DNA of 64,000 bases from Halarcobacter sp. Lineage in GTDB: Bacteria; Campylobacterota; Campylobacteria; Campylobacterales; Arcobacteraceae. The notes below the pieces were generated by a model, which worked only from the letters and a program-made list of their open reading frames with translations, was not told where the DNA came from and made no database searches. How positions within the stretch are numbered: position 1 is the first letter of the stretch; every line of letters begins with the position of its first letter. Positions 41,583 through 63,734 of this stretch are shown here, one piece after another. A program made the position numbers and the translations under genes. The stretch is taken from contig CP182352.1 of assembly GCA_048571215.1 (NCBI GenBank), positions 3,520,001 to 3,584,000 on the forward strand, written 5' to 3'.

Positions 41583-43286
41583 ATGCAAATATTATTTTTG
41601 ACAGATCAAAATATTAATGAAAAATATTCTAAAGTTATTTTACAATATAACAAAGCACTTACTCAAAATATCTTATTAGTTAATTATTCTTCCCTATATG
41701 AAAAACAAAAGTTTATTTATGCAAAAGAGTGTATGGTATTAAATAAAGAGGAAGTGCTTACTGACGTACTTCTTTCCCCATCTATTGTTATTGATTTAAG
41801 TCAAACTTTAGAATATACAATTTTAGAAAAATATTTAAAAACATGTTGGGTAAATGTACAACAAGCATTTTTCCAAAAAGATGAAGCAAAACAAAACTCC
41901 ATTGGAAGCATAGAATCTTCTGCAAAAGTATCAAATTGTATTTGTTATACCAATAATAATGAAGCACCAATATTAAAAGTTATTGAAGATAGTATTAATT
42001 TATCTTCAGACAATAAAATATTAAGCCCTTTTAACACAATTGGATTAATCGAACAAGCTATTACTGAATTTTTTGCAGATATAAATTATTTTAGTCAATT
42101 TGAGTGGCCTAGAAATAAGGATATTTCAAATCATCAAAGTACAGTATTCTTTGTACAATTTGAAGTTTTTGAAAGATTTGGTGATTTTATAGTAGAAAAT
42201 ATTCAATATCAATCTTTAAATTATGAACAACTCATATCTTATAATAATCATTTTCTTTTTAAATATATTGATGATTTATTAGACTTTAGACTTGATAGGT
42301 ATATCCAACAAGTAAAATTTAGAACACATATTATAAAGCTTTGTGAAAAATATAAAATAGATTTAGAACCTTCATATTATAAAACTTTTGTACTTACCAA
42401 AGATAATCATATTGGACTACAACGTAGATATTATGGATCACTTAATAGTAAAAGAGGTATAAATATTATAAATGATAAACATAAGACTAATACTTTTTTA
42501 AGAGAAAATGGTTTTAATGCTAACTTATCTTATGAATATACACTAAAGCAATTACTTGAAGAGGAAGTAATTGATAATTTGCCAATTGATTATCCCCTAA
42601 CTTTAAAACCTACGGATAAAAAAGAGGGTTATGGGGTTGTAACTAATATTCCCAATAAAAAGCGTATGAAAATCTCTATCAAAAAAATGTTAAACTTAGA
42701 GGATATCAATTCAGTTTTAATTGAAGAGTTTTTTGAGGGTGTAACCTATCGAGTATTAGTTGTTAGTGGTGAAGTTACGGCAGTACTTAAATATATCCCA
42801 GCATCTATTTTAGGAGATGGAGAGAGTAGTATTGAAGAGCTTATAAAAAATAAAAATCTTATTTCTAAGTCAAGAGTAAGGATAAATAATGCTCTTAGAT
42901 TAAGTATTTTTAATGATGAAAAAAGATGGGAAACTGTATTACCTGAAGGGAAGAAATATATTATAAGTCATAATTCCCATGCATCAAATGGGGGACAATC
43001 AATAAATGTTACTAATCTTTTTGATGAAAAGTATAAAAAAGTTTGTTCTCAAGCATGTAAAAGCTTAGGATTGAAAATGGCAGGTATCGATATGATAGTA
43101 AACTCAGCTGGAGATTATAGAATTATTGAGATAAATTGTGGTCCTGCTTTGGCAACACATGTTAATCCTAAACATGGCTCTTCTATTAAAACATATACAA
43201 AAGTCTTATATTCACTGTTAGAAGAGGTGGATATTGAAAAAGATGAAAATAGTTATCTAAAAGATTTAGTACCATATCATAAATAA
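41583..43286 (+). CDS. ATP-grasp ligase, cyanophycin synthetase/GshAB-like (paralog 1)
   Basis: INDKHKT, LKPTDKKEGYGV, LIEEFFEG, YRVLVV, GIDM, IIEINCGP. Confidence 0.82.
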   Translation: MQILFLTDQNINEKYSKVILQYNKALTQNILLVNYSSLYEKQKFIYAKECMVLNKEEVLTDVLLSPSIVIDLSQTLEYTILEKYLKTCWVNVQQAFFQKDEAKQNSIGSIESSAKVSNCICYTNNNEAPILKVIEDSINLSSDNKILSPFNTIGLIEQAITEFFADINYFSQFEWPRNKDISNHQSTVFFVQFEVFERFGDFIVENIQYQSLNYEQLISYNNHFLFKYIDDLLDFRLDRYIQQVKFRTHIIKLCEKYKIDLEPSYYKTFVLTKDNHIGLQRRYYGSLNSKRGINIINDKHKTNTFLRENGFNANLSYEYTLKQLLEEEVIDNLPIDYPLTLKPTDKKEGYGVVTNIPNKKRMKISIKKMLNLEDINSVLIEEFFEGVTYRVLVVSGEVTAVLKYIPASILGDGESSIEELIKNKNLISKSRVRINNALRLSIFNDEKRWETVLPEGKKYIISHNSHASNGGQSINVTNLFDEKYKKVCSQACKSLGLKMAGIDMIVNSAGDYRIIEINCGPALATHVNPKHGSSIKTYTKVLYSLLEEVDIEKDENSYLKDLVPYHK

Positions 43287-43310: not shown

Positions 43311-44261
43311 ATGAGTAAATTAAATATATTAAAAGAGTTTGATCATCGACAGTTATTCCGTTTCTTTGTAGATGGGCGTTTATATGTAAAAGAAAATGGT
43401 TGGGAAGGTTATGAAAGTAGACAACCTGGATGCATAAAAGGGATGAGCCTATCTTATGCCCATATGGTTAATAACTTTGAATTAAAAGATGGTTTAACTT
43501 TGGAATATATATCTAAATTACATGACCTTACATTTTATAATATTGAAAAAAAATTACGTAGAAATCGTTACCCTGGTGAGATTAGAGAGTTTAGAATTAG
43601 TTTTCTTGTTAAACCTGTTATTACAAAGGGTGGTATAGCAGAGTTAATGGGAGATAGAACAGTTGTTGATGCTTTTAAAAAGGGTATAAGAGGGTGTAAT
43701 ACTGCAGAAGATATATATAATGCTATTATGGCTGGGAAAAAAATCCGTTATATTTCAGAAGTTGGTTATTTAACACCAGAATTAAATCAAGCATCTTTGG
43801 ATAGAGAGCCAAAAGATTTATATCTTAAAGCAAGAGCACAAGTTAAAAAGAATATTACAGAAAAAACATTACAACTTATTAATGAGTATAATGAAAAAAT
43901 CAATACTTTAGAGGAAGAAGAGAAAATCTATTTTATTGTAGATGTAATTAAAAGATTAGAAAGATTACACCCTTTTGTTGATGGAAATATTCGTGTATTT
44001 GTTACTATTTTACTAAACCATTTATTGATGTTAAATGATTTTTATCCAGCTATTTTTGAAGAACCAAGTGTTTTTGATGCTTATACAACAAAGGAGATAG
44101 TAGAAGAGGTTAAAAAGGGGCAAGAGTTAGTTAAACAATTGATTGATAATCCAGAGAGTAGAGTATTTGGACATTCAATAACTGATGAAAGTGAAGAAAA
44201 CATTTCAACAATTTGTGAGTTGATGTCTGAATTTTCAGAAGCAATAAAAAATCATAATTAA
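43311..44261 (+). CDS. AnkX-like Fic-domain protein (putative CDP-aminoalcohol:protein phosphotransferase) without ankyrin repeats
   Basis: Fic motif HPFVDGNIR (His220); N-terminal FFVDGRLYVKENGWEGYESRQPGC closely resembles the AnkX CMP-binding segment as recalled from memory. Confidence 0.8.
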   Translation: MSKLNILKEFDHRQLFRFFVDGRLYVKENGWEGYESRQPGCIKGMSLSYAHMVNNFELKDGLTLEYISKLHDLTFYNIEKKLRRNRYPGEIREFRISFLVKPVITKGGIAELMGDRTVVDAFKKGIRGCNTAEDIYNAIMAGKKIRYISEVGYLTPELNQASLDREPKDLYLKARAQVKKNITEKTLQLINEYNEKINTLEEEEKIYFIVDVIKRLERLHPFVDGNIRVFVTILLNHLLMLNDFYPAIFEEPSVFDAYTTKEIVEEVKKGQELVKQLIDNPESRVFGHSITDESEENISTICELMSEFSEAIKNHN

Positions 44262-44267
44262 TCAAAC

Positions 44268-45947
44268 ATGCAAATTTTATTTTTAGTTGAAGATAAAGAA
44301 AATTTATGGGAAGAGTCTCGTATTAAATTAGAGCCCCTTTTAAAATATAATAAGTCTTTATCTCAAAATATTTTATTATCAGATTGTGCTTATATTTCTA
44401 ATGGTTTTTCAAGTAAATGTTTAGTCGTAAATACAAACGAGATGAAAAAACTTGTAATGTTATCACCCTCTTTGATTGTAAATCTTTATAATAAAAAATC
44501 TCAATTGGATATTGAAGCATATTTTCGTGTCAAATGGCCTAGTGCACAAATAGTTTGTTGGAATAAAAAATATTTAGATAAAAGATATTTTGATAATTTT
44601 ATAGATGAAAAAGATATTATAGAATCTATAGCATATACAACAAATTTAGAAGCACCAAAATTTAAATTACTTAGTAAAACTGTTAAAGATGAAGATTTTA
44701 TTGGTCTTATTGAGCAAGCAGTAACTGAGTATTTCTCAGATAGAAACTTTTACAAATCTTTTAAATTACTTCAAACAAGTAAGATTTTAAAAAACCGTAG
44801 TATTATCTTTAAATTTCAATATAAAATTATAAAAGAAAATGCTGATTATACTATTAAAATCAATTCTGTATCTTTACTTAGTTTTTTTGATTTAGTTGAA
44901 TTGGATATAAATTATGTTTATGAGTATTTTGATGAGGTATTAGATTTTAGATATAAATATTATATAGAACAAGTTAAATTAAGACAATATATAGATGATT
45001 TATGTAAAAAGCATAATATTAATCTTGAACCCTCAATTTTTAGAACTTTTGTTTTATCAAAAGATGATAAATTAGGATTACATAGACCATATTTTGGTGG
45101 AGTTAATGACTTAGAAGGTATAAAAACAATTAATGATAAACATTTAACGAATGTTATTTTAAAAGAGAAAGGGTTTAAAACAAATATCTCTTATGAATAT
45201 TCATTAGATGAACTCAATAATGAAAAAGTTATTGAAGAGATTCCTTTGGAGTATCCATTGGTTTTAAAACCAACAGATAAGAAAAAAGGATATGGTGTAG
45301 TAACAAATATTTTAAATCCAGAAAAAATGCTTTTTTCAGTTAAGGAACTAATGAAACTAGGAGATATAAAACCTGTTTTAATTGAAGAGTTTTTTGTTGG
45401 TATGACATATCGTGTTTTAGTAGTTGCAGAAGAGGTAATTGCTGTACTTAAATTTATGCCTACTTATATTGTAGGAAATGGAAAATTAACTATTAAAGAG
45501 TTGATACTATCAAAAAATATACTTTTAAGATCTCGTATTCGTATAAATGATGCCTTAGAGTTGAATCTTTTAAATGATGGGTATAATTATAGTACAATAT
45601 TAGAAAATGGTCATAAATATATTCTTAGTCATAACTCTCATGCTTCAATGGGTGGACAAGCTACTAATGTAACTGATATATTTAGTGATGAATTAAAACA
45701 AATATCATGTGAAGTTACTAAAAGTTTAGGTTTAACACATACAGGAATAGATATGAATGTAAATGCTCAAGGAGATTATCGTATATTAGAAGTTAATTGT
45801 GCTCCAGCATTATCATCACATTTATATCCTAAATATGGAACATCAATTGATACTTATAGCAAAGTTTTAGAAGCTTTTTTTACTCATACTGACTTACAAA
45901 GAGTAGAAAATAAATATCTTCCCGAAATGTTTAAATATCATAAGTAA
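44268..45947 (+). CDS. ATP-grasp ligase, cyanophycin synthetase/GshAB-like (paralog 2)
   Basis: INDKHLT, LKPTDKKKGYGV, LIEEFFVG, GIDM, ILEVNCAP; collinear with 41583. Confidence 0.82.
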   Translation: MQILFLVEDKENLWEESRIKLEPLLKYNKSLSQNILLSDCAYISNGFSSKCLVVNTNEMKKLVMLSPSLIVNLYNKKSQLDIEAYFRVKWPSAQIVCWNKKYLDKRYFDNFIDEKDIIESIAYTTNLEAPKFKLLSKTVKDEDFIGLIEQAVTEYFSDRNFYKSFKLLQTSKILKNRSIIFKFQYKIIKENADYTIKINSVSLLSFFDLVELDINYVYEYFDEVLDFRYKYYIEQVKLRQYIDDLCKKHNINLEPSIFRTFVLSKDDKLGLHRPYFGGVNDLEGIKTINDKHLTNVILKEKGFKTNISYEYSLDELNNEKVIEEIPLEYPLVLKPTDKKKGYGVVTNILNPEKMLFSVKELMKLGDIKPVLIEEFFVGMTYRVLVVAEEVIAVLKFMPTYIVGNGKLTIKELILSKNILLRSRIRINDALELNLLNDGYNYSTILENGHKYILSHNSHASMGGQATNVTDIFSDELKQISCEVTKSLGLTHTGIDMNVNAQGDYRILEVNCAPALSSHLYPKYGTSIDTYSKVLEAFFTHTDLQRVENKYLPEMFKYHK

Positions 45948-45981: not shown

Positions 45982-47787
45982 ATGCAAGCACTAATACTAG
46001 CAGCAGGTACAGGGAGTAGATTAGGTAAATATACAAAAGAAAATACTAAATGTATGTTAGAAGTTAATGGTGAAACTTTAATTAATCAAGCTCTAGCTAA
46101 ATTAAATAATGTAGGTATAAAAAAACTAATAATGGTTGTTGGGTATAAAAAAGATAATCTAATTGAACATGTAGGAAATAGATATAAAAATATTGAAATT
46201 GAATATATAGAAAATCCAATTTATAGTACTACAAACAATATTTATTCTTTGTATTTAGCTAAAGATAAGTTAGCGCAAGATGATACTATATTATTAGAAA
46301 GTGATTTACTTTTTGAAGAAAAAATTCTTTTGAATTTAATAAATGATAAAAGAAAGTCATTGGCAGTAGTGGATAAGTATCAGGCTTGGATGGATGGAAC
46401 AGCTGTTACCTTGAGTGATAATGATGATATTTTAGGTTTTTATGGTAAAAAAGCATTTCAGTTTAAAAATGTTGATAAATATTATAAAACAGTAAATATT
46501 TATAAATTTTCAAAAGAGTTTTCTTTAGATGTATATATCCCTTTTTTAGAAGCATATTCAAAGGCAATGGGTGACAATGAATATTATGAATCTGTATTAA
46601 GAGTAGTTTTAATGCTAGAAGACCAAGAGTTAAAAGCTTTAAAACTTAATGGTGAAAAATGGTATGAGATTGATGATGTACAAGATAAAGCAAATGCAGA
46701 AGTAATATTCTCTAAAAATGCAAAAGATAAATTAAAATTGATTCAAAGTAGATATGGGGGTTATTGGAAGTTTCCAGAGTTAAAAGATTTTTGTTATTTA
46801 GTTAATCCATATTTTCCAACTTTTAAAATGCAAGAGGAGATGAAAGCATATTTTTATGAACTTCTTTCTCAATATCCATCAGGGCAATCAACACTAAGAC
46901 TTCTTGCTGGGAAAATGTTTAAAGTAGAGGCTGAAAATATTTTAGTTGGAAATGGAGCATCAGAGATAATAAGAGGCTTAGGAAATGCAATTGAGGGAAC
47001 TTTTGGTTTAGCTTTTCCAACATTTAATGAATATCCTGAAAGTCTAGGTTATAATAGAATAGTTAAATTTATGCCAAAAAATGACCAATTTTCTTATGAT
47101 ATAAATGATATGATGAATCTAGCTAATAATTGTGACAATCTATTATTAATCAATCCTGACAATCCAAGTGGTAATTTTATATCAAAAGATTTTTTATTAG
47201 AGCTTGTAGAAAAACTTCAAAAAATAAATAAGAATTTAATTTTAGATGAGTCTTTTGTTGATTTTTCAACACAAGGTGAAAAAGAGACTATGATTACACA
47301 AAAAATAATAGATAGATATCCTAATTTAATAGTTATAAAAAGTATATCAAAAAGTTATGGAGTTCCAGGTATAAGACTTGGAGTTGTAGCAACATCAAAT
47401 ATGAAAATTATGTCAGCACTAGAAAAAGAAGTAACTATATGGAACATTAATTCTTATGGTGAATTTTTCTTACAAATTATTGGAAAATATAAAAAAGATT
47501 ATAATGCAAGTTGTGAAGAGATTTCCATGGAAAGAGATAGATTTTATATTAAACTTCAAGAAATCTCCTATCTAAAAGTTGTCTCTTCTCAGGCGAATTA
47601 TTTTTTACTACATGTAAGTGATAAATTTACAGCAACTGAACTCACTGAGTTATTATTATATAAATATGAAATTTATATAAAAGACTTGACAGGAAAAATT
47701 GGTTTTGAAGATAAACAATGTATACGAATAGCTGTAAGAAGTTATGAAGATAATGAGTTTTTAATTGATAGATTAAAAGAGTTATAA
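45982..47787 (+). CDS. LicC-like cytidylyltransferase fused to a class I/II PLP enzyme (CobD/HisC-like)
   Basis: LILAAGTGSRL, TNNIYSL, LLESDL, WYEIDDVQD; NPDNPSG, DESFVDF, KSISKSYGVPGIRLG. Confidence 0.87.
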   Translation: MQALILAAGTGSRLGKYTKENTKCMLEVNGETLINQALAKLNNVGIKKLIMVVGYKKDNLIEHVGNRYKNIEIEYIENPIYSTTNNIYSLYLAKDKLAQDDTILLESDLLFEEKILLNLINDKRKSLAVVDKYQAWMDGTAVTLSDNDDILGFYGKKAFQFKNVDKYYKTVNIYKFSKEFSLDVYIPFLEAYSKAMGDNEYYESVLRVVLMLEDQELKALKLNGEKWYEIDDVQDKANAEVIFSKNAKDKLKLIQSRYGGYWKFPELKDFCYLVNPYFPTFKMQEEMKAYFYELLSQYPSGQSTLRLLAGKMFKVEAENILVGNGASEIIRGLGNAIEGTFGLAFPTFNEYPESLGYNRIVKFMPKNDQFSYDINDMMNLANNCDNLLLINPDNPSGNFISKDFLLELVEKLQKINKNLILDESFVDFSTQGEKETMITQKIIDRYPNLIVIKSISKSYGVPGIRLGVVATSNMKIMSALEKEVTIWNINSYGEFFLQIIGKYKKDYNASCEEISMERDRFYIKLQEISYLKVVSSQANYFLLHVSDKFTATELTELLLYKYEIYIKDLTGKIGFEDKQCIRIAVRSYEDNEFLIDRLKEL

Positions 47788-47818: not shown

Positions 47819-49270
47819 ATGGACGATAGAGTGATGTTATTAAACTCAGATGATATAGCACAAATCACTGGTGGGGAATGGTTTAATTTAAATGAAACAA
47901 TAAAGTTTCATGGAATTAGAGTGAATATTAAACGTTTAGAAAAAAATGATATATGCTTTTGTACAAATCCTGAACAATGGGGTAAAAAGATTGTTAACTC
48001 AGAAAAATCGCTTCAGAAGATTTTTGAAAGAGGAGCTAGTGCAGCTGTAATTGTAAATAAAGAACTTGTAAATAGTATAAAAAAACCATTATTATTAGTT
48101 GAAAATAGTAAAAAAGCTTTAGAAGATATAGCTTTTTATGTTAGAGATAATATTAATATTCCTAGAGTTTTAGTTACTGGTACAGAAGGTAAAACAGGTT
48201 TTAAAAATCAAATTTATTCACTATTGTCAAGACAGATTAATGTACATGCCAAACTCGATAGTTCAAATTTAAATGTACCTATAATGTGCTCTTTGGCAAG
48301 TTTATCGGAGAATGATAAAGTAGAAATTTTAGAAGCATCTGTTGCAGGTCCAAATGTTGGTGTGACTAGAAGCAATATAGTAAAACCAGATATATGTGTA
48401 ATAACACAAGTTGGTATTGCCCATATTACTACTCATGGTTCAGTTGATAATATGATTGAAAATAAAGCATCAATAATAGATGCCCTTAAGAAAGATGGTA
48501 TTTGTATTGTAAATGCAGATAGTGATAATTATGATAAATTAAGAGAAGCTATATATAGAAGAAAATATGTTGATATCAAAACCTTTGGAAGTAGTTCTAA
48601 ATGTAATGCTAGGATAATTGAATCTTCATTTGATAAAAAAGAACTTTTATGGAATGTAAAAGCTAATATAGAGGGGATAGAACTAGAGTATAAAGTTCCT
48701 TTATTGGGTGATTATGTTCCTGTTGCTAGTTTAATACCTTTACTTACGATTCATTATTTAGGCTATGATGTAAAAAAAGCTGCAGCTGATTTTATATATT
48801 TTAAAAGTATGGATACTATGGGTGGATTGAGTGAAATTGTTTGTAAAGATAAAACATTTAGATTTTTTGATCATTCTCATAGGGGTTCACTTTTAGGTTA
48901 TAGCTCTGCTTTAAAAGATTTTGCTTATATGCATCCTAAAAAAAATGGTAAAAAGATTGCAGTTATTGGAAATATGATGAATATAGGAAAAATATCAAAA
49001 AAAGCTCATGCTGATTTAGTACCTTTAATAGAAGAAGCAAAAGTTGAAAGATTATATACCGTAGGTAAATTTGCAAAACCAATACATGAAAAACTTAAAG
49101 ATAAATCAATTTTAATAAATCATGCAGATAAATATCAAGATATAGAAAAACAAATTTTAGCAGATATAGATGATGGCGATGTAATTTTTATGAAAGGTAA
49201 TCATAGAATTTGGTTAAAAGAACTTGCTGCAAAGATATATGATATGGGAGAACGACATGCGATCAGATGA
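47819..49270 (+). CDS. MurF-like amino-acid ligase (least degenerate of the three)
   Basis: VTGTEGKTG, KPDICVITQVGIAH, IAVIGNMMNIG, FMKGNH. Confidence 0.83.
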   Translation: MDDRVMLLNSDDIAQITGGEWFNLNETIKFHGIRVNIKRLEKNDICFCTNPEQWGKKIVNSEKSLQKIFERGASAAVIVNKELVNSIKKPLLLVENSKKALEDIAFYVRDNINIPRVLVTGTEGKTGFKNQIYSLLSRQINVHAKLDSSNLNVPIMCSLASLSENDKVEILEASVAGPNVGVTRSNIVKPDICVITQVGIAHITTHGSVDNMIENKASIIDALKKDGICIVNADSDNYDKLREAIYRRKYVDIKTFGSSSKCNARIIESSFDKKELLWNVKANIEGIELEYKVPLLGDYVPVASLIPLLTIHYLGYDVKKAAADFIYFKSMDTMGGLSEIVCKDKTFRFFDHSHRGSLLGYSSALKDFAYMHPKKNGKKIAVIGNMMNIGKISKKAHADLVPLIEEAKVERLYTVGKFAKPIHEKLKDKSILINHADKYQDIEKQILADIDDGDVIFMKGNHRIWLKELAAKIYDMGERHAIR

Positions 49271-50336
49271 TAATGTAGATATTTTCTTTTTAGGAGATAC
49301 GTATTTTGGCGAATGGCATATGAGACTTCGTGGAAGAAAAGGGCAGTCTAATATTTTAGAGGAAAAAGGTTATTTACATTTTGGTAAAAATTTTGAAGAA
49401 ATACTAAGTGATGGTGATGAGGTTCTTATGAATTTAGAATGTACTATTACCGAAATAGAACCATCACCTTTGAAAGGTACTGAAAAAAAACATCTTTATT
49501 CTGCAAGAGCAGAAGGAACAATTTCAGCACTTAAAAAGTTAAATATAACCACATGTATTTTAGCAAATAATCATGCGGTAGATTATGGTAAGGCTGGACT
49601 TATTGATACTATTACAAATTTAGAAGAAGCTGGTATTAAATATATTGGAGGAGGTAGAAATGAAGCAGAAGCAGCGGCTCCACTAATATTTCAAAAAAAA
49701 CTAGGTGATAAAAAATTCAAAGCAGCTATAGTATCAACATACAATTATGGTGTAGCATCTGATAGATATGGATTTTATGCAAAGGGTGATATCCCAGGAG
49801 TTAATAGAAAAAATTTATCAAAAATTACAGAACAAATTAAAAAAATAAAAGCAAAAGACAATGATATAATGTATATTTTGTCTCCCCATTGGGGACCAAA
49901 TTATGTATGGAGAACTTTTACTCAACAAAAACAAGGTGAAGAATTTATAAGATCAGGTGTTGATTTAATAGTTGGACATAGTGCCCATATGATTCAGGAA
50001 GTTGAATATTATAAAGATAGACTTATAATATATAGTATAGGTAATTTTCTTATAAATGGTAATGGTGAATATAAAAGAAGAAGATTGCCACCTTATAGTT
50101 TTATAGCAAGATTGAATGTGCAAAATATTGATAATACTTTTGTTAAAAAGATCTATTTATATCCTATATTTGTTGATAATATGGCAAGTGATTTTACCCC
50201 TAGATTTGTAGATAAAAAAGAGTTTATTCATGTAAAAGATATATTAAGAAGTCATGAAATAAGTACAGATATATTTGATAATACAGTAATTTTAGGTCAA
50301 GATAAGTTTGGATATTTTTTAGAATATGAAATTTAA
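49257..50336 (+). CDS. CapA/PgsA-family metallophosphoesterase, no signal peptide
   Basis: FLGD, NLEC, ANNHAVDYG, HWG, GHSAH, YSIGNF; GGGAG SD before ATG 49257. Confidence 0.87.
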   Translation: MRSDDNVDIFFLGDTYFGEWHMRLRGRKGQSNILEEKGYLHFGKNFEEILSDGDEVLMNLECTITEIEPSPLKGTEKKHLYSARAEGTISALKKLNITTCILANNHAVDYGKAGLIDTITNLEEAGIKYIGGGRNEAEAAAPLIFQKKLGDKKFKAAIVSTYNYGVASDRYGFYAKGDIPGVNRKNLSKITEQIKKIKAKDNDIMYILSPHWGPNYVWRTFTQQKQGEEFIRSGVDLIVGHSAHMIQEVEYYKDRLIIYSIGNFLINGNGEYKRRRLPPYSFIARLNVQNIDNTFVKKIYLYPIFVDNMASDFTPRFVDKKEFIHVKDILRSHEISTDIFDNTVILGQDKFGYFLEYEI

Positions 50337-50409: not shown

Positions 50410-53400
50410 ATGATTAAGCTAATAATTAGACACACAAATGCTGAGATTGAAGAAAAAGTTGTTGAAGATGGTATGAAGTTTCAACCATTGGAAGGTGAAC
50501 AATTCTACTTCATAGGTTCTGATGGTTATACATTTACTTTATCAGGGAATGAATCTACAGTAAATCTTTCTTTAATGGATGGTAATGAAAGAGTTAGTGT
50601 AAGTCTTGATAACATGGCAGATTTAATAAAAGCTAATAATCCTGGAGATGCATTTGCTTTAACTACAGCACTAGGGGTGTCTTCAACTCCGGATGGTGCA
50701 GCTGAAATAGAACAAGCATTAGCAGACCCAAATTTAGAATCAGCACAAATTATAGATGTATTAAAAGAGAATTTATCAGAAAGTACTGTTGCAGAAAATG
50801 ATGGTGCAATTATTGATAACTTTGGTTCATTGGCAGAAGCTCTTGATGCAGCTGCAGCAGGTGCAATACAGAGTGATCCGACTTTATTTATAGACGAAAC
50901 TAGAGGGCAAGAAGAAACTCCAGCAGATACGGAGAGAGGTGAACGAATCGAGACTGATACCGACACGGATACTGATACAGATACAGATACTGACACGGAT
51001 ACAGATACCGATACTGATACCGACACAGATACGGACACGGACACAGATACAGACACGGATACTGATACAGACACTGACACAGACACTGATACAGATACTG
51101 ACACGGATACAGATACCGACACAGACACTGATACAGATACTGATACCGACACCGACACTGACACCGATACTGATACAGACACAGATACAGACACGGACAC
51201 AGACACGGACACAGACACGGACACAGACACGGATACAGACACGGATACCGATACCGACACTGACACCGATACTGATACAGACACCGATACAGATACTGAT
51301 ACAGACACTGATACAGACACTGATACCGACACAGACACGGATACAGATACTGATACCGACACTGACACAGACACTGATACAGATACAGACACCGATACTG
51401 ATACTGATACCGATACTGACACAGACACGGATACAGATACTGATACCGATACTGATACCGACACGGATACAGATACTGATACCGATACTGATACCGACAC
51501 GGATACTGACACAGACACCGATACAGACACTGATACAGATACAGACACCGATACTGATACTGATACCGACACAGATACTGACACAGACACGGATACAGAT
51601 ACTGATACCGACACGGATACAGATACTGATACTGACACGGATACAGACACCGATACTGATACCGATACCGACACTGATACCGATACAGACACAGATACAG
51701 ATACTGACACAGACACTGATACTGATACAGACACTGATACTGATACTGATACCGACACGGATACAGATACGGACACTGACACAGACACGGACACGGACAC
51801 TGATACAGATACTGACACAGACACTGATACCGACACGGATACAGACACGGATACAGATACGGATACAGATACTGATACTGATACAGATACTGACACGGAT
51901 ACAGATACCGACACGGACACAGACACTGATACAGATACTGACACGGACACTGATACAGATACTGACACAGACACTGATACAGATACAGATACAGATACCG
52001 ACACTGACACAGATACAGATACAGATACTGATACAGATACAGATACAGATACTGATACAGACACGGATACAGATACTGATACCGACACGGATACAGACAC
52101 GGATACAGATACAGACACGGATACAGATACTGATACTGATACAGATACTGACACGGATACAGATACCGACACGGACACAGACACTGATACAGATACTGAC
52201 ACGGATACAGATACTGATACCGACACTGACACAGATACAGACACCGATACTGATACAGACTCTGATTCAGACAGTGATACCGATTCGGATTCAGACTCTG
52301 ACACCGATAGTGATAGTGACTCAGACACTGATTCAGATACCGACAGTGATAGTGATTCAGACACAGACTCTGACTCAGACAGTGATACGGATTCTGATAG
52401 TGACTCAGATTCTGATTCGGATAGTGATTCAGACTCAGATAGTGACTCTGATTCAGATACTGACACGGATACGGACACAGATACCGACACAGACACTGAT
52501 ACGGACGCAGACACTGACACAGACACTGACACGGATACAGATACAGATACGGACACAGACTCTGACTCAGATAGCGATACCGATAGTGATAGTGACTCAG
52601 ACACAGACAGTGATACAGATTCAGACACAGATTCGGATAGCGACTCAGATACAGACTCTGATTCAGACAGTGATACCGATTCGGATTCAGACTCTGACAC
52701 CGATAGTGATAGTGACTCAGACACTGATTCAGATACCGACAGTGATAGTGATTCAGACACAGACTCTGACTCAGACAGTGATACGGATTCTGATAGTGAC
52801 TCAGATTCTGATTCGGATAGTGATTCAGACTCAGATAGTGACTCTGATTCAGATACTGACACGGATACGGACACAGATACCGACACAGACACTGATACTG
52901 ATACGGACACAGACACTGATACCGACACAGACACTGATACGGACACAGACACTGATACCGACACAGACACGGATACCGATACTGATACGGACACAGATAC
53001 GGACACAGACACTGATACAGACACAGACACTGACACGGATACAGATACAGATACGGACACAGACTCTGACTCAGATAGCGATACCGATAGTGATAGTGAC
53101 TCAGACACAGACAGTGATACAGATTCAGACACAGATTCGGATAGCGACTCAGATACAGACTCTGATTCAGACAGTGATACCGATTCGGATTCAGACTCTG
53201 ACACCGATAGTGATAGTGACTCAGACACTGATTCAGATACCGACAGTGATAGTGATTCAGACACAGACTCTGACTCAGACAGTGATACGGATTCTGATAG
53301 TGACTCAGATTCTGATTCGGATAGTGATTCAGACTCAGATAGTGACTCTGATTCAGATACTGACACGGATACGGACACAGATACCGACACAGACACTGAT

Positions 53401-56400
53401 ACTGATACGGACACAGACACTGATACCGACACAGACACTGATACTGATACTGATACGGACACAGACACTGATACCGACACAGACACGGATACCGATACTG
53501 ATACGGACACAGACACTGATACGGACACAGACACTGATACAGACACAGACACGGATACAGATACGGACACAGACTCTGACTCAGATAGTGATAGTGACTC
53601 AGACACAGACAGTGATACAGATTCAGACACAGATTCGGATAGCGACTCAGATACAGACTCTGATTCAGACAGTGATACCGATTCGGATTCAGACTCTGAC
53701 ACCGATAGTGATAGTGACTCAGACACTGATTCAGATACCGACAGTGACAGTGATTCAGACACAGACTCTGACTCAGACAGTGATACGGATTCTGATAGTG
53801 ACTCAGATTCTGATTCGGATAGTGATTCAGACTCAGATAGTGACTCTGATTCAGATACTGACACGGATACGGACACAGATACCGACACAGACACTGATAC
53901 TGATACTGATACGGACACAGACACTGATACCGACACAGACACTGATACTGATACTGATACGGACACAGACACTGATACCGACACAGACACGGATACCGAT
54001 ACTGATACGGACACAGACACTGATACGGACACAGACACTGATACAGACACAGACACGGATACAGATACGGACACAGACTCTGACTCAGATAGTGATAGTG
54101 ACTCAGACACAGACAGTGATACAGATTCAGACACAGATTCGGATAGCGACTCAGATACAGACTCTGATTCAGACAGTGATACCGATTCGGATTCAGACTC
54201 TGACACCGATAGTGATAGTGACTCAGACACTGATTCAGATACCGACAGTGATAGTGATTCAGACACAGACTCTGACTCAGACAGTGATACGGATTCTGAT
54301 AGTGACTCAGATTCTGATTCGGATAGTGATTCAGACTCAGATAGTGACTCTGATTCAGATACTGACACGGATACGGACACAGATACCGACACAGACACTG
54401 ATACTGATACGGACACAGATACTGATACTGATACGGACACAGACACTGATACCGACACAGACACTGATACCGACACAGACACTGATACCGACACAGACAC
54501 GGATACCGATACTGATACGGACACAGATACGGACACAGACACTGATACAGACACAGACACTGACACGGATACAGATACAGATACAGATACGGACACAGAC
54601 TCTGACTCAGATAGCGATACCGATAGTGATAGTGACTCAGACACAGACAGTGATACAGATTCAGACACAGATTCGGATAGCGACTCAGATACAGACTCTG
54701 ATTCAGACAGTGATACCGATTCGGATTCAGACTCTGACACCGATAGTGATAGTGACTCAGACACTGATTCAGATACCGACAGTGACAGTGATTCAGACAC
54801 AGACTCTGACTCAGACAGTGATACGGATTCTGATAGTGACTCAGATTCTGATTCGGATAGTGATTCAGACTCAGATAGTGACTCTGATTCAGATACTGAC
54901 ACGGATACGGACACAGATACCGACACAGACACTGATACTGATACTGATACTGATACGGACACAGACACTGATACCGACACAGACACTGATACTGATACTG
55001 ATACGGACACAGACACTGATACCGACACAGACACGGATACCGATACTGATACGGACACAGACACTGATACGGACACAGACACTGATACAGACACAGACAC
55101 GGATACAGATACGGACACAGACTCTGACTCAGATAGTGATAGTGACTCAGACACAGACAGTGATACAGATTCAGACACAGATTCGGATAGCGACTCAGAT
55201 ACAGACTCTGATTCAGACAGTGATACCGATTCGGATTCAGACTCTGACACCGATAGTGATAGTGACTCAGACACTGATTCAGATACCGACAGTGATAGTG
55301 ATTCAGACACAGACTCTGACTCAGACAGTGATACGGATTCTGATAGTGACTCAGATTCTGATTCGGATAGTGATTCAGACTCAGATAGTGACTCTGATTC
55401 AGATACTGACACGGATACGGACACAGATACCGACACAGACACTGATACTGATACGGACACAGATACTGATACTGATACGGACACAGACACTGATACCGAC
55501 ACAGACACTGATACCGACACAGACACTGATACGGACACAGACACTGATACCGACACAGACACGGATACCGATACTGATACGGACACAGATACGGACACAG
55601 ACACTGATACAGACACAGACACTGACACGGATACAGATACAGATACGGACACAGACTCTGACTCAGATAGCGATACCGATAGTGATAGTGACTCAGACAC
55701 AGACAGTGATACAGATTCAGACACAGATTCGGATAGCGACTCAGATACAGACTCTGATTCAGACAGTGATACCGATTCGGATTCAGACTCTGACACCGAT
55801 AGTGATAGTGACTCAGACACTGATTCAGATACCGACAGTGATAGTGATTCAGACACAGACTCTGACTCAGACAGTGATACGGATTCTGATAGTGACTCAG
55901 ATTCTGATTCGGATAGTGATTCAGACTCAGATAGTGACTCTGATTCAGATACTGACACGGATACGGACACAGATACCGACACAGACACTGATACTGATAC
56001 GGACACAGACACTGATACCGACACAGACACTGATACTGATACTGATACGGACACAGACACTGATACCGACACAGACACGGATACCGATACTGATACGGAC
56101 ACAGACACTGATACGGACACAGACACTGATACAGACACAGACACGGATACAGATACGGACACAGACTCTGACTCAGATAGTGATAGTGACTCAGACACAG
56201 ACAGTGATACAGATTCAGACACAGATTCGGATAGCGACTCAGATACAGACTCTGATTCAGACAGTGATACCGATTCGGATTCAGACTCTGACACCGATAG
56301 TGATAGTGACTCAGACACTGATTCAGATACCGACAGTGACAGTGATTCAGACACAGACTCTGACTCAGACAGTGATACGGATTCTGATACCGATTCAGAT

Positions 56401-58101
56401 TCAGATAGTGACACCGATTCTGATAGCGATAGTGACACAGATTCAGATTGTGATACAGATGTTGATGCAGATAAACCAATTGCAGATATTGAAGTTGAGT
56501 ATGAAAAAACAGTTACCGTAAATGAAGTTTGTTCTACTTCACAAAATCTAGGTAATTTAGCTGCTTATTTAGATGGTATGAATAATGTAAATGCAAATGA
56601 AGTTGTTGATTTAGCAAAAGATCAAAATGGTAACCCACAACAAGATCAATACAACTTAGAATTGACTTCATTTGGAGATGGAGATTTAGCATTATATGAT
56701 AATGAATCTAATCAAAATGAAACTAGAGATATCAATGATATTGATTTAAATGATGTTACACCATTTGATCCATCAAATGCAGAAGTAGTAAATAACACCA
56801 TAAATCATACATACAATATGACATCAAATGAAGTTATTTTTGAAGGTGATATTGTTCAAAATGGTAATGTAATAGGAACATCAGACAATGATGTGATTAT
56901 TGTAAAAGGTGAGGTTCAAGGTGGTTCAAATGTTAATGCAGGTGCTGGAAATGACCTTATTGCAATAGTAGGAAATATTGGAGAAAATCAACCAGCAATT
57001 GATGGGGATAGTGGTACAGACATACTATATCTAAGTAAACCTGCATCTAATTATGAGTTTTTAGATATCCACTTCCATGACAATTTAGATGGACATATTT
57101 TAGATAAAGAGACTCAAAGTGTATTAACATTTAATAACATAGAAGGAATTGCCTTTGGTGATGGTTCTGGGGTAAATTGTAAAGTAAATACATCAACAAG
57201 CTATCAATACAATGTAAGTATAAGTGCTGCATTAACTGATATTGATGGAAGTGAAACTTTATCTGTAGCAATATCTGGAGTGCCAAATGGTGCTACACTA
57301 TCAAGTGATACCTATACATTAATTGATAATGGAAATGGAAATTGGACAGTTGAAGTACCAAATGGAGATGTATCTATAGTTGATGATATTACTATGAATG
57401 TTCCATCAGATATAGGAGATTTTAACCTTGAAATAACAGCAAGAGCAACTGAAATCAATGATAATGATGGTACTGATTATGCAGAAACAACAGATAGTGA
57501 TTTTGTAACTGATGATATCGATCCAGATACAGAAATCAATAAATTTGACTTAGTAGGAAATGTAACTACTGGTTCAGGAGATGATACAATTAATGTGTCA
57601 GATGATATATTCTTAGCTAATGTTGATACTGGAGCAGGAGATGATACAATCAATGTAGGAGATGATATAGGATTATTTACTTCAATAGATACCGGAGCAG
57701 GAGATGATACAATTAATATTGGTGACAATATTAGTTATTCAGCTCAAATTGATATGGGTGATGGTATTGATACCCTAAGTTTAGATGATGATATTGATTT
57801 ATCTGATATAGCAAAAAATGTTGATAATGTTGAAATAATTGATTTGGATAATGATGAAGACCAAGATCTAGAAATAGATTTAGATTCAATTATCGATTTA
57901 ACTGATGATGATAATGATTTAGTTGTTATTGGTGATAATGGTGACAAAATTGACTTTAATGATTCTGGTTGGGAAAAAGGCGATAGCACAAAAACTGTTG
58001 ATGGACAAGATGGAGAGTTTACTGAATACACAAATACAAACAATCCAAATGTATCAATTTTAATTGATAATGACATTGACGTAGATGATGATGACATTTA
58101 A
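50410..58101 (+). CDS. Giant Asp-Thr/Asp-Ser repeat surface protein, putative T1SS substrate (LapA-like)
   Basis: No Sec signal; AAAAG at aa 147-151; ~1830-aa TD/SD tract; DIDGSETL Ig-like module; RTX-like G(A/S)GDDTIN repeats; acidic C-terminus; T1SS genes downstream. Confidence 0.88.
50953..56448 (+). repeat. 6-bp (Thr/Ser-Asp) coding tandem repeat with ~500-bp higher-order units
   Basis: (ACN GAY)218 at 50953-52260, then 9 copies of an SD-rich block starting 52261, 52657, 53161, 53659, 54163, 54697, 55207, 55753, 56251. Confidence 0.97.
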
Positions 58102-59751: not shown

Positions 59752-61593
59752 ATGTTTTTACAATCAAACAATATGGATAAAACTATGAAAACAATAATCG
59801 AAAGAATTCTCATTTTAAGTCTCTTTGTAACATATGCTAGTTCAACTTCTTTAAAAGATTCAGTTATAAGTACTTTAGGTAAAAACCCTGATGTATTATC
59901 TGAAAAATTAAATAGGGATGCTTATCAAAAGTATGTTGATGAAGAAAAAGGTGATTATTATCCAACACTAGATTTTCAAGGATATGTTGAAAAATCTAGA
60001 ACAAGAAATGATAGAGATAATGTTGCTACAGATCCAAGCAGTGCAAAAAAAGATGGATGGCATGCTGCATTAACTTTTGAACAGATCATTTATGATGGTG
60101 GACAAACACCAAGTCAAGTAGAACAGTATAAACATACTTATCTATCAAATAAGTACAGAAGTTTAATTAGAGTTGATGAAATTGTAAGGTCAACTATTGA
60201 TAATTATCTTAATGCAGTTAAATATCAAGAGTTAATTGATCTTTCTCAATTAAATCTACAGGTACATGAAGATTATTTAGTGATTGCACAAGAGAAAGAA
60301 AATATAAGTGGAGAAATCTTAGAGACTTATCAAGTAAACTCTAAAAAACATTATGTGATAGACAGATATTTGGAACAAAAAATAAATGAAGATGAGGCAA
60401 GAAATATTTTTGCAGAAAAGTCAGGTATTGAAAATCCAGGAAATATTTGTAGACCTACAATTAATGAAGCTTTTATACCTAGTACTTTAGAAGAAGCAAT
60501 AGAAAAAGCAGTTAGAAATAGTCCAAAAATATTAAGAGCTATTGAAGATATTAAGGAGCAAAGGGAAAATGTAGTACAAGCTAATGCTACATATCTACCT
60601 ACTTTAAGATTCCAATGGGTAGGAAGTTTAGATGATGATTTATCAAATGCAGAAAATGGTAGACAAGATATATCTAGATTTAGAATTATTATGGATTGGA
60701 ATCTATTTGAAGGTGGAAAAAATAAAATTGCAAAAGAAAGAGAAGTTCTTTTTTTACAAGAAAAACAAAAAATTCTTGATACAACAGTAAATCAAGTTAT
60801 TCAAGAGGTTACCACAAGTTATAAAAAGTATTTTTCTTTTAAAGAAAAAATAGAAAATTATAAAAAATATGTTAAAGATAACTATTATATTAAAGAGGTA
60901 TATTTTAAACAATTAACAGATGGTACTAGAACTTTTATTGATATACTAGATGCAGAATCAGAATATTATAGATCATCATTAGATTTAATAGATTTTGAAT
61001 ATCAGTTATATGGATATTATTATGATATTTTAAATCATAGTGGTCTATTGAGTACAAGCATTTTGATGTCTGAAAATCAAGTATGTAAAGAATTCAAATT
61101 ATCAAAATATGAAAGTAGATTTAAACAAAAAGTAAAAGATAATAATAGTGAATTAAATGACTTAGATTTACTCCAAGAGCTTGGTCAAGCACAAAGTAAA
61201 ACAAAAACTGAGGAAGGAAATACAAAAGAAGTAGATATGGAGATTGATAATTTAATCAATGGTACCTCTGTAGGGGAGAACAATGAAACTAAAAATCCAG
61301 ATGAAAATGCAGTAAAAAATTTACCTACAGGAAAGTATACTATTAAGCTTGCGACTTTTGATCAAAACTATGATATTAATTCATTTATAGAAAAAAATAA
61401 ACTAAATCCAGATGATGTATATGCATACAGTACTAACAATAATATAAATGTTATTTATGGGCACTTTAATAAGCTTGGTGATGCTAAAGCACTATTAAGC
61501 AGTTTAGATAAAAGTTTAATTAATAGTAATGTATATATTGATATTCTTGAAAAACATAGAAAACTTTATCAAAAATATAAAACAAATAATTAG
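59752..61593 (+). CDS. TolC/LapE-family outer-membrane channel with C-terminal SPOR-like extension (start may be 59773 or 59785)
   Basis: YYPTLD, YLPTL, WNLFEGG, GTRTFIDILDAESE; tail KYTIKLATF...VIYGHF. Confidence 0.9.
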   Translation: MFLQSNNMDKTMKTIIERILILSLFVTYASSTSLKDSVISTLGKNPDVLSEKLNRDAYQKYVDEEKGDYYPTLDFQGYVEKSRTRNDRDNVATDPSSAKKDGWHAALTFEQIIYDGGQTPSQVEQYKHTYLSNKYRSLIRVDEIVRSTIDNYLNAVKYQELIDLSQLNLQVHEDYLVIAQEKENISGEILETYQVNSKKHYVIDRYLEQKINEDEARNIFAEKSGIENPGNICRPTINEAFIPSTLEEAIEKAVRNSPKILRAIEDIKEQRENVVQANATYLPTLRFQWVGSLDDDLSNAENGRQDISRFRIIMDWNLFEGGKNKIAKEREVLFLQEKQKILDTTVNQVIQEVTTSYKKYFSFKEKIENYKKYVKDNYYIKEVYFKQLTDGTRTFIDILDAESEYYRSSLDLIDFEYQLYGYYYDILNHSGLLSTSILMSENQVCKEFKLSKYESRFKQKVKDNNSELNDLDLLQELGQAQSKTKTEEGNTKEVDMEIDNLINGTSVGENNETKNPDENAVKNLPTGKYTIKLATFDQNYDINSFIEKNKLNPDDVYAYSTNNNINVIYGHFNKLGDAKALLSSLDKSLINSNVYIDILEKHRKLYQKYKTNN

Positions 61594-61604: not shown

Positions 61605-63734
61605 ATGGAAGAATTAGAAAAAACAGTTAATAGAAAAGTAGATACTCTTTTAGAGTCTCTATTTTTTATTGCTAAATATTATCAAAGAGCGACTTCTAAA
61701 GAGTCATTACTTAATGGCTTGTCAATTTTTGGAGATGTAATGGATGTTGATAATTTTATTCAAGCATCAAAAAAGGTTGCATTAATCTCAAAATTTGTTA
61801 AAAGAGATAATATTGAAGATATAAATAAATTAACATTTCCAGCTGTAATTTTCACAACAAAATACGACTCTATGATTTTACTTGACTACGATGAAGAAGG
61901 GAATAGTGCAAATTTGATTATTCCTGAATTGAGTTTAGGTGAAACTACTATGCCATTAGATGAACTTAATTCACTTTATACAGGCAGGGTAATTATTATT
62001 AAGCCTGCATATAATTTTGAAAATCGTTCTTCAAGAGAAGTATCTATCTTAAATCCAAAAAAATGGTTTTGGGATACAATGAAGAAAAGTAAAGAGTTCT
62101 ACGCAAGAGTTATTGTTGCAACTATTTTTATCAATATCTTTGTGATAGCTTTACCTTTATTTATAATGAATGTCTATGATAGAATTTTACCAAACAATGC
62201 TATTGAATCCTTATGGGCATTAGCAATTGGTGTATTTGTTGTAATGATATTTGATTTTATTCTTAAAATTATTAGGTCGTATTACATTGGTAAAGCTTCA
62301 AAAAAAGCAGATATCATTATGTCAAATAAAATATTTGATCATCTTTTAAATTTAAGGCTTGATTCTAGACCTTCATCTACTGGTATGTTTGTTAATAGAT
62401 TACAATCTTTTGAATCTATAAAAGAGTTTTTTACAACAGCAACAATTACTACTTTAGTGGATATTCCATTTTTATTTATTTTTGTAGCAATTATTTTTTA
62501 TATTGGTGGACCTTTAGGATGGATTCCTGTAATTACAATAATTATAGCTCTAATTAGTTCTTTTTTTATGCAAAAGATAATTAAAAAAAATGTTACAAAT
62601 ACAGTTAATGAGGAACAATTAAAACAAACAACATTAAATGAAACTGTAACAGGATTAGAAATAATAAAAAGTGTTCGCGGTCAAAATAGAATGAAAACAC
62701 ACTGGGATAAATCATTAAGTCAAACAGCATATTATGGAGAAAAAACACAACTTTTCTCACAAGTTGCAAGTGGCCTTACCGATTTTATAACAAAGTTTTC
62801 AAATGTAGTTATTATTGTATTTGGAGTTTTTTTAGCTTCAAGTGGTGATATGACGATGGGTGCAATCGTAGCTTCAATGATGTTAAACAGAAGAGCAGTT
62901 GCTCCTGCATCAAAGATTGTGAATCTAGTTATAAAATATGATAGAGCAATGATTGCATTAAAAAATATTGATGACATTATGAGTTTAGATGTTGAAAAAG
63001 ATCATAAAGTATATTTAAGTAGACCCCATTTAATTGGAGACATAGAGTTTCAAGATGTAAGTTTTTCTTATAAAAAACAAAATTATGAAGTATTAAAAAA
63101 TATAAATTTAAAGATAAATCAAGGTGAAAAAGTAGCGATTTTAGGAAAAATTGGTTCAGGAAAGTCAACACTAATTAAGATGATTCAAAATCTTTATGTT
63201 CCAACAAAAGGTTCAATTTTAATTGATAATACAGATGTTAGACAAATTGACCCAGTAGATTTAAGAAAGGCTATAGGTGTTGTTCCTCAAGAATCATTTT
63301 TATTTATGGGAAGTGTAAAAGATAATATTACAATAGGAGATCCTTTTGCAACAGATGAGGAGATATTAAAAGCTTCAAAAATTGCTGGAGTTCATGATTT
63401 CTTAGGTAAACATGAAGCGGGTTATGATTTTCTTGTAGGTGAAAGAGGAGAAGGATTAAGTGGTGGTGAAATTCAATCTATTACTTTAGCAAGAGCACTT
63501 GTAAGTAATCCAGATTTTATGATATTTGATGAGCCTACAAACTCAATGGATAAACAAACAGAAAGAGATTTTTTAAAAAAATTAAAACTTATTTTAGATA
63601 AACAAACTGTGATTATTGTTACCCATAAGTTATCTTTATTGTCTTTGGTTGATAGGGTAATAGTTTTAGATAATGGTAAAATAGTAGCTGATGGTCCAAA
63701 AGAAAAAGTATTTTCTAAAGCGAATAAAGAGTAG
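61605..63734 (+). CDS. Type I secretion ABC transporter (LapB/HlyB-type, C39-like N-terminus)
   Basis: PLFIMNVYDRILPN, GKIGSGKST, LSGGEIQ, IFDEPT. Confidence 0.95.
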   Translation: MEELEKTVNRKVDTLLESLFFIAKYYQRATSKESLLNGLSIFGDVMDVDNFIQASKKVALISKFVKRDNIEDINKLTFPAVIFTTKYDSMILLDYDEEGNSANLIIPELSLGETTMPLDELNSLYTGRVIIIKPAYNFENRSSREVSILNPKKWFWDTMKKSKEFYARVIVATIFINIFVIALPLFIMNVYDRILPNNAIESLWALAIGVFVVMIFDFILKIIRSYYIGKASKKADIIMSNKIFDHLLNLRLDSRPSSTGMFVNRLQSFESIKEFFTTATITTLVDIPFLFIFVAIIFYIGGPLGWIPVITIIIALISSFFMQKIIKKNVTNTVNEEQLKQTTLNETVTGLEIIKSVRGQNRMKTHWDKSLSQTAYYGEKTQLFSQVASGLTDFITKFSNVVIIVFGVFLASSGDMTMGAIVASMMLNRRAVAPASKIVNLVIKYDRAMIALKNIDDIMSLDVEKDHKVYLSRPHLIGDIEFQDVSFSYKKQNYEVLKNINLKINQGEKVAILGKIGSGKSTLIKMIQNLYVPTKGSILIDNTDVRQIDPVDLRKAIGVVPQESFLFMGSVKDNITIGDPFATDEEILKASKIAGVHDFLGKHEAGYDFLVGERGEGLSGGEIQSITLARALVSNPDFMIFDEPTNSMDKQTERDFLKKLKLILDKQTVIIVTHKLSLLSLVDRVIVLDNGKIVADGPKEKVFSKANKE

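Follow-up and report, generated by a model that had tools for sequence, protein, structure and literature searches.

What is the function of a protein in which every second residue over a stretch of 1,840 is aspartate, and why do enzyme genes run directly into the gene that encodes it? This question is raised by a locus in a 64,000-nucleotide stretch of DNA from Halarcobacter sp. (GCA_048571215.1, contig CP182352.1, positions 3,520,001 to 3,584,000 of the forward strand), which is called the window here and whose numbering is used unless another genome or locus is named. The open reading frame (ORF) at 50410-58101 (+) encodes a predicted surface adhesin of 2,563 amino acids, whose longest strict x-Asp run extends from aa 182 to 2021 (nt 50953-56472). 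This array comprises 920 x-Asp pairs, with x being T in 592, S in 324, A in two and C and V in one case each, and the whole adhesin has 1,076 acidic and 24 basic residues. No other x-D run of at least eight pairs was found in the six frames of the single-contig genome (G000; 3.61 Mb, 28.5% GC). The adhesin gene is preceded by twelve genes on the same strand, spaced by -47 to 77 nt. Coupling between the array and this gene cluster recurs in several bacterial classes, and we lean towards the view that a dedicated tailoring system in the cytoplasm acts on the array, probably by placing phosphoethanolamine on Thr/Ser and ligating further groups to Asp.

Orthologues of the adhesin carry arrays at the same position as the 920-pair array. 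These amount to 348 pairs in G002 (T116 then S230), 742 pairs in G019 (T661 then S79), and 1,243 and 751 pairs, nearly all with T, in G006 and G016; in G017 (at least 390 pairs) and G027 (at least 76 pairs) the orthologue runs into a contig end. In G012, 17 pairs are followed by repeats, and in G023 only repeats are present, both being Pfam LapA repeats (PF20579) over the cut-off. Since these two orthologues have folded repeats at the array position, the comparison shows that the x-Asp array replaces folded LapA repeats in this adhesin family, in line with an original prediction, made from the window's letters, of a stalk in place of folded repeats. The G015 orthologue (L028:5111-12859), which lacks the cluster, has a Glu-Pro repeat at the x-Asp position. 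In G016 (L020:4304-17601), the orthologous adhesin is broken into more than one frame towards its 3' end, and the G012 adhesin also ends early.

The distribution of the upstream genes follows that of the array. All seven genomes with a long array at the orthologous locus (G000, G002, G006, G016, G017, G019 and G027) possess genes for a protein with an AMMECR1 domain and an (alpha/alpha)6 toroid (the barrel), an AnkX-like Fic protein, a MurF-like ligase, a nucleotidyltransferase and a pyridoxal phosphate (PLP) enzyme. In G012, the barrel gene is the only cluster gene kept. In G023, G010, G014, G015 and G018 the adhesin gene is free of arrays over its full length, and no cluster lies within 20 kb upstream of it; G001, G003, G005 and G007 also lack the cluster, but their adhesins were read only partially or went unread. 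An even sample of 301 genomes from the order yielded the barrel in four (G000, G027, G259 and G275), three of them with Fic. The array pattern was present in these four (909, 107, 187 and 24 pattern matches) and in a fifth genome, which had a single 10-pair match in an unrelated protein and no barrel; the barrel genomes are exactly the four with substantial arrays. From the class to which an Oceanospirillum record belongs, 401 genomes were sampled, one of them not scored for the barrel, and 15 gave pattern matches. More than 23 matches occurred only in the chosen centre and in G628, both with more than 100, and these were the two genomes with a barrel at E<1e-100; in G628 barrel and array are 2.2 kb apart. 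The other pattern matches listed were mostly perfect hexamer runs.

A profile of the Fic protein led to 43 loci, found in Sulfurimonas, Methylococcaceae, Oceanospirillum, Francisella, Burkholderiales, Aestuariivirgaceae, Desulfobulbus and others. Mur-like genes are present in 38 of these, the barrel in 29, nucleotidyltransferase and PLP enzyme together in 25, and an array within the locus in 10. Whole-genome searches for 38 of the 43 loci (of the others, four came from genomes already counted and one was a partial match) revealed arrays in 26 genomes. An S/T/A/N-Asp tract was also detected at 15 of 69 metagenome barrel loci. The barrel gene is the tightest genomic partner of the array; it was not found in plasmids, and Fic weakly matches three Legionella plasmids. 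Near the cluster, arrays are carried by canonical NF033682 retention-module proteins, an outer-membrane-protein-like ORF, lipoprotein-like ORFs and others, the types being labelled by eye save for the NF033682 matches. As unrelated carriers stand beside the same enzymes, it is the tract and not the carrier that tracks them. Within 24 tracts Ala occupies x 147 times; x may be Ala, Asn or Leu, and Asp is fixed. At one alphaproteobacterial locus (L069:11154-12593), an outer-membrane-protein-like ORF with a 70-pair x-Asp insert lies beside Fic, barrel and a PepM/Ppd/aminoethylphosphonate (AEP) transaminase set. A short GNNGxGNGDQDAPG-like motif was seen just 3' of the array in unrelated carriers (L078, L111, L171, L187 and L168).

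AnkX entries are the sole PDB relatives of the Fic protein (E 2e-27). It contains the motif HPFVDGNIR, and its residues Y34, F98, H220 and D256 align to AnkX Y41, F107, H229 and D265; AnkX Ile109 lies outside the printed alignment. In AnkX, Tyr41, Phe107 and Asp265 set the flipped binding of CDP-choline (PMC8605245), and the enzyme transfers phosphoethanolamine from CDP-ethanolamine in vitro (PMC10115812). The fusion protein encoded at 45982 has a nucleotidyltransferase domain like LicC and PntC-type cytidylyltransferases (1JYK, 6PD1). The best PDB match of its PLP domain, 6OUX, is the Sulfurospirillum serine-phosphate decarboxylase SMUL_1544. It has been proposed that SMUL_1544 makes ethanolamine phosphate (PMC4585668). 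G027 and L069 have PepM, Ppd and an AEP transaminase instead. From these similarities it may be coherently inferred that CDP-ethanolamine or CMP-aminoethylphosphonate would serve as donor for a Ser/Thr-directed Fic protein, to which the array would offer 916 hydroxyls, next to 920 Asp residues. As for the ligases, cyanophycin synthetase uses its Mur-like domain to join Arg to Asp side chains (PMC9262961), a precedent for amino-acid grafting on the Asp residues of the array. Graspetide-like ester cross-linking of Thr and Asp by the ATP-grasp enzymes was ranked low since ATP-grasp matches occur in only 3 of the 43 Fic loci.

The model of the barrel is confident (pLDDT 93) and combines an AMMECR1 domain (1ZQ7, 1VAJ) with a toroid that is closest to cellobiose 2-epimerase (Z 28.9, root-mean-square deviation 3.3, 337 residues aligned), followed by GH76 (Z 27.6). 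The single sequence found no match in the PDB, and its profile gave weak GH76 matches only (best E 0.007). Many Arg, Lys, His, Asp and Glu residues are invariant. Here the barrel carries a fused kinase and Sel1 repeats; in relatives it is joined to Fic/Mur or has no fusion partner.

These similarities suggest the following scheme. The array would form the central stalk of the adhesin, which would be exported by the neighbouring type I secretion system (T1SS), and the upstream enzymes would decorate it in the cytoplasm before export. The PLP domain would decarboxylate phosphoserine, and the nucleotidyltransferase would make CDP-ethanolamine, or CMP-aminoethylphosphonate where PepM/Ppd are present. 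The AnkX-like Fic protein would then move the phosphoethanolamine (or aminoethylphosphonate) group onto Thr/Ser hydroxyls, and the MurF-like and ATP-grasp ligases might attach amino acids either to the side chains of Asp or to the amines introduced in this way. The barrel, sole partner in minimal loci, may act on or bind the x-Asp chain itself, and the Ser/Thr kinase fused to it is a candidate for a further modifier of the stalk. The result would be a brush-like spacer, tuned in charge and resistant to proteases, that holds the C-terminal head away from the cell; the N-terminal domain would anchor the decorated stalk, and LapG would release it. If true, this would be a new route to a surface polymer whose backbone is encoded by a gene. 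It would matter for how sulfur-oxidising and methanotrophic bacteria attach and, in carriers of PepM/Ppd, for the fate of environmental phosphonates.

More tentatively, and with some reserve, we suggest that x-Asp tracts might be a portable tag read by such a tailoring system across Campylobacterota and Gamma-, Alpha- and Betaproteobacteria. The AMMECR1-barrel would be the 'writer' and would be joined by optional modules, namely an AnkX-like Fic protein with its own CDP-ethanolamine/CMP-aminoethylphosphonate supply and Mur-like and ATP-grasp ligases, to give a grafted, cyanophycin-like brush polymer via the T1SS. This would mean a housekeeping role for AnkX-type Fic domains and a first substrate for the AMMECR1-toroid family. 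The coupling as such bears on the function of AMMECR1-(alpha/alpha)6 proteins, on the role of AnkX-type Fic proteins in free-living bacteria and on T1SS export of side-chain-grafted polypeptides.

Several observations weigh against a tailored array. The case is built throughout on gene neighbourhood and homology, and kin genomes are not independent, so that Fisher values overstate the coupling. Four distant gammaproteobacterial barrels in the 401-genome draw have no S/T array, 12 of the 38 Fic-locus genomes have none (three lack the cluster, the rest are mostly fragmented metagenome-assembled genomes), and among metagenome barrel loci of at least 10 kb only 12 of 35 contain one. Barrels from gut metagenomes (L151-L164, approximately 44-46% identity) stand alone, with no array in the locus; Melainabacteria are common in the Atlas clusters of such barrels. 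In G259 the array gene and the cluster are on separate contigs. G275 and G628 have barrel and array with no Fic or Mur gene nearby, and decoration therefore cannot be universal. The N-terminus of the adhesin does not match the canonical retention module (see below), and the nearest folds of the barrel are sugar epimerases and hydrolases, which would fit a separate polysaccharide too.

The array might indeed be a bare polyanionic spacer, possibly binding Ca2+ or mineral as the original prediction had suggested, with the cluster making a separate surface polymer (a peptide or phosphonate capsule) and travelling with the adhesin through joint function or on a shared island. By charge alone, the excess of acidic residues would bind cations. 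The CapA-like, MurF-like and ATP-grasp proteins belong to polymer-building families, the barrel resembles sugar-acting toroids, and barrels without arrays exist. However, no polymer export genes were seen in the cluster of the window, and loss of the array in G012 and G023 goes exactly with decay of the cluster. Furthermore, the coupling follows the tract over unrelated carrier proteins, and the characterised relative of this Fic type modifies protein hydroxyls (PMC10115812). A separate polymer is conceivable, and in our judgement unlikely.

Doubtful, and clearly less probable, is the notion that the barrel is the sole true partner and processes the chain by epimerizing, cleaving or chaperoning the x-Asp backbone, the other genes being optional passengers with other targets. 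The barrel-only loci G275 and G628, the variation of x beside a fixed Asp, the cellobiose 2-epimerase match with GH76 close behind, and the many invariant Arg, Lys and His residues of the barrel would all fit. On the other hand, a shared toroid fold proves no function, and Fic, nucleotidyltransferase and PLP enzyme, which occur together in 25 of the 43 loci, adjoin arrays in distant classes.

Whether the array could owe its pattern to its DNA was judged from the codons. A total of 21 codon pairs is used, and GAC makes up 45% of the Asp codons in the array compared with 10% in the long ORFs of the genome. The first block consists of TD throughout (pairs 1-218), and in it 18 adjacent hexamers are identical, against a shuffle mean of 32.3 (7 of 2,000 shuffles were equally low). 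Scrambled codons and fewer identical hexamers than in shuffled sequence fit selection for a protein repeat and not slippage; a microsatellite origin is ruled out by the 21 codon pairs, the scrambled, GC-shifted codons and the scarcity of identical neighbouring hexamers. 3' of this block, nine S-rich blocks lie in units of 198-546 nt with a near-identical codon string, which argues for recent tandem duplications: the S-rich/TD part consists of recent tandem copies of a unit of approximately 500 nt. The original prediction had correctly described an alternating x-Asp array, with 218 leading TD pairs and, ahead of the CDTDVDAD end, a single alanine (GCA at 52507), and its estimate of approximately 1830 residues was slightly short.

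It had also supposed that the S/T patterning could direct block-wise modification or mineral binding. Modification gains support from the coupled enzyme cluster, whereas a code in the blocks does not. TD precedes SD in G000, G002, G017, G019 and G259, and this order is all that recurs among relatives; regular alternation is private to this genome and was seen in no relative read, with G006 and G016 being almost Thr only. Together with the near-identical DNA copies in the codon-level map, these arrays led us to reject a block code, and alternating Ser-rich and Thr blocks that instruct block-wise modification or mineral templating are highly improbable.

Equally remote is a largely over-expanded assembly or a silent gene: duplicated units are of the type that assemblers get wrong and no contig spans the array, but the units vary in length and codons, no stop codon interrupts the frame, arrays of similar size occur in three single-contig relatives, and RNA-labelled contigs cover both ends of the gene. 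Public DNA contigs, which may stem from the sequencing of the source itself, agree exactly with both flanks and reach 57 and 113 letters into the array; as none was found to span it, its exact length is without independent confirmation. The single-contig relatives have 742, 751 and 1,243 pairs, and 920 pairs is within this range. The RNA-labelled contigs stem from one run and match both ends of the adhesin gene and pieces of the cluster at approximately 99% identity; this is weak evidence for expression of gene and cluster, given that DNA carry-over is possible.

The stalk architecture as such is already known, and the coupling of the array to the upstream enzymes is what is new. The original prediction took SD repeats to be typical of Gram-positive sortase-anchored adhesins; this is too narrow, as SD-stalk T1SS proteins have been described in Acinetobacter, Klebsiella and Enterobacter (PMC4647330). 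Among them are the beta-BAPs, lap-linked proteins in which SD tracts occupy the position of the Ig repeats; a glycosyltransferase and an acetyltransferase are located next door on their island (PMC4647330). In common with these SD-rich lap-linked adhesins, the Halarcobacter protein is a predicted T1SS substrate, encoded beside lapEBC-type genes, whose Ig-like repeats have given way to hundreds of x-Asp dipeptides. In contrast to them, Thr-Asp is dominant here, the N-terminus is specific to Arcobacteraceae and the neighbours are barrel, Fic, Mur and cytidylyltransferase genes; the available excerpts of PMC4647330 propose no modification system. Staphylococcal SD-repeat proteins likewise have a dipeptide-repeat stalk as substrate of dedicated enzymes, SdgA and SdgB (PMC3794999). 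They are, however, Sec-exported, sortase-anchored and modified with N-acetylglucosamine by glycosyltransferases (PMC3794999), whereas the present protein has no signal segment and an acidic, non-LPXTG C-terminus, and a scan of the 12 upstream genes revealed no glycosyltransferase.

With LapA-type adhesins linked to BTLCPs (PMC7730722), the system shares a LapB-type ABC transporter, genomic LapG and LapD, an AAAG motif after the N-terminal domain and LapA repeats in orthologues; unlike in these two-step secreted adhesins, NF033682 is not matched, LapG and LapD are unlinked and the stalk is a dipeptide array. The Fic protein shares with AnkX (PDB 4BER; PMC8605245, PMC10115812) the CMP-binding and Fic region and matching specificity residues. 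It differs in being a 316-aa protein, stand-alone or Mur-fused, without ankyrin repeats (NF043028, 113 vs 1,400 bits), and in that free-living bacteria encode it together with a predicted CDP-donor pathway of its own, a surface protein of the same cell being the predicted target. ATP-grasp and Mur-like ligases are shared with the cyanophycin synthetase CphA1, whose Mur-like domain attaches an amino acid to Asp side-chain carboxylates (PMC9262961); here they are separate genes and not a single N-G-M polypeptide (approximately 141 vs 850 bits for TIGR02068), and the presumed backbone is ribosomal. Thus, the protein would work like a beta-BAP or LapA-type adhesin, yet its N-terminus matched neither the retention module nor, by Pfam and NCBIfam families, that of BAP, and it is accompanied by another set of enzymes. 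In the literature searched, most subscription papers being outside its reach, the array-barrel-Fic coupling is nowhere described, and cluster and array probably constitute an undescribed tailoring system.

Features of the locus in the window, in order of position
Feature	Position	Strand	Remarks
AMMECR1-domain and (alpha/alpha)6 barrel (aa 1-610), fused to Ser/Thr kinase and Sel1 repeats	32822..35890	+	
HExxH putative metalloprotease with N-terminal hydrophobic segment	35887..36852	+	NF045524 below cut-off
MurF-like ligase with LPG_synthase_C (aminoacyl-transferase-like) domain, intact P-loop	36852..39254	+	
MurF-like ligase, intact P-loop	39283..40731	+	
Bax-inhibitor-1-like membrane protein	40750-41505		
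ATP-grasp ligase resembling cyanophycin synthetase G domain	41583..43286	+	
Stand-alone AnkX-like Fic protein	43311..44261	+	Residues aligned to AnkX Tyr41, Phe107, His229, Asp265
Second CphA-like ATP-grasp ligase	44268..45947	+	
LicC/PntC-like nucleotidyltransferase and CobD-like PLP enzyme fusion	45982..47787	+	Best PDB match 6OUX, E 2e-51
MurF-like ligase, intact P-loop	47819..49270	+	
CapA (PGA_cap)-family protein	49224..50336	+	Ends 73 nt 5' of adhesin start
Giant T1SS substrate, 2,563 aa, no N-terminal hydrophobic signal	50410..58101	+	
N-terminal 181-aa domain, predicted beta-rich then helical; presumed non-canonical retention module	50410..50952	+	
AAAAG motif (aa 147-151), candidate LapG cleavage site	50848..50862	+	Conserved in orthologues
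218 Thr-Asp pairs, scrambled synonymous codons	50953..52260	+	
702 further x-Asp pairs: nine S-rich blocks alternating with TD runs, duplicated units of ~400-550 nt	52261..56472	+	
C-terminal 542-aa region, GG-like repeats at 57568, 57628 and 57691, acidic end	56473..58101	+	
TolC-family outer membrane protein	59752..61593	+	Pfam OEP
LssB/LapB-type T1SS ABC transporter	61605..63734	+	TIGR03375, 823 bits vs cut-off 693
Likely membrane fusion protein, 447 aa	starts 63737		

The cluster starts with an ankyrin-OmpA lipoprotein gene, followed by the barrel-kinase fusion and the remaining enzyme genes. Barrel, Fic, ligases and CapA-like protein have no hydrophobic N-terminus, and barrel, Fic and CapA-like genes are single-copy in the genome. 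For the Bax-inhibitor-1-like protein no match was listed in the upstream regions of relatives.

A two-component pair, the TolC-family gene, the LapB-type transporter gene and that of the likely membrane fusion protein lie 3' of the adhesin gene. The linked TolC-family and TIGR03375 genes and the C-terminal GG-like repeats support the original assignment of the protein as a T1SS substrate. Its C-terminal region likely carries the secretion signal; there are three TGxGDDTIN[VI] motifs and no Pfam or NCBIfam match to repeats-in-toxin (RTX) families. The AAAAG motif, a candidate site of LapG cleavage, is a di-alanine motif conserved in a 14-row orthologue alignment. Genes for LapG (PF06035) and LapD (PF16448), both over the cut-off and adjacent, are present in the genome at C1:589 kb and 2.296 Mb, unlinked to the adhesin locus.

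The N-terminal 181-aa domain is kept in 22 of 24 same-genus genomes. It gave no match to the canonical retention module NF033682 at E 0.1, and a profile comparison with canonical retention modules yielded a probability of 1.7%, with only the AAAG stretch aligned. Foldseek with the domain model found no match at E 0.001, the best Z in the VIA structure comparison was 4.9, and Atlas was likewise without support. A canonical retention module was therefore rejected, as neither hidden Markov models, profiles, Foldseek, VIA nor Atlas supported it. No Pfam or NCBIfam family was found on the 181 residues, BAP itself not having been directly aligned. Since the domain model is only middling (pLDDT 66), the missing fold match does not indicate a new fold.

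Two further giant loci were seen in the same genome. At G000:C1:1080886-1115998, two neighbouring RTX-rich open frames of 4,416 and 7,303 codons overlap by approximately 40 nt in different frames and resemble one giant gene split by a frame change. At G000:C1:3182610-3233090 (-), two giant ORFs of 12,405 and 4,096 codons have similar starts and identical last 40 residues.

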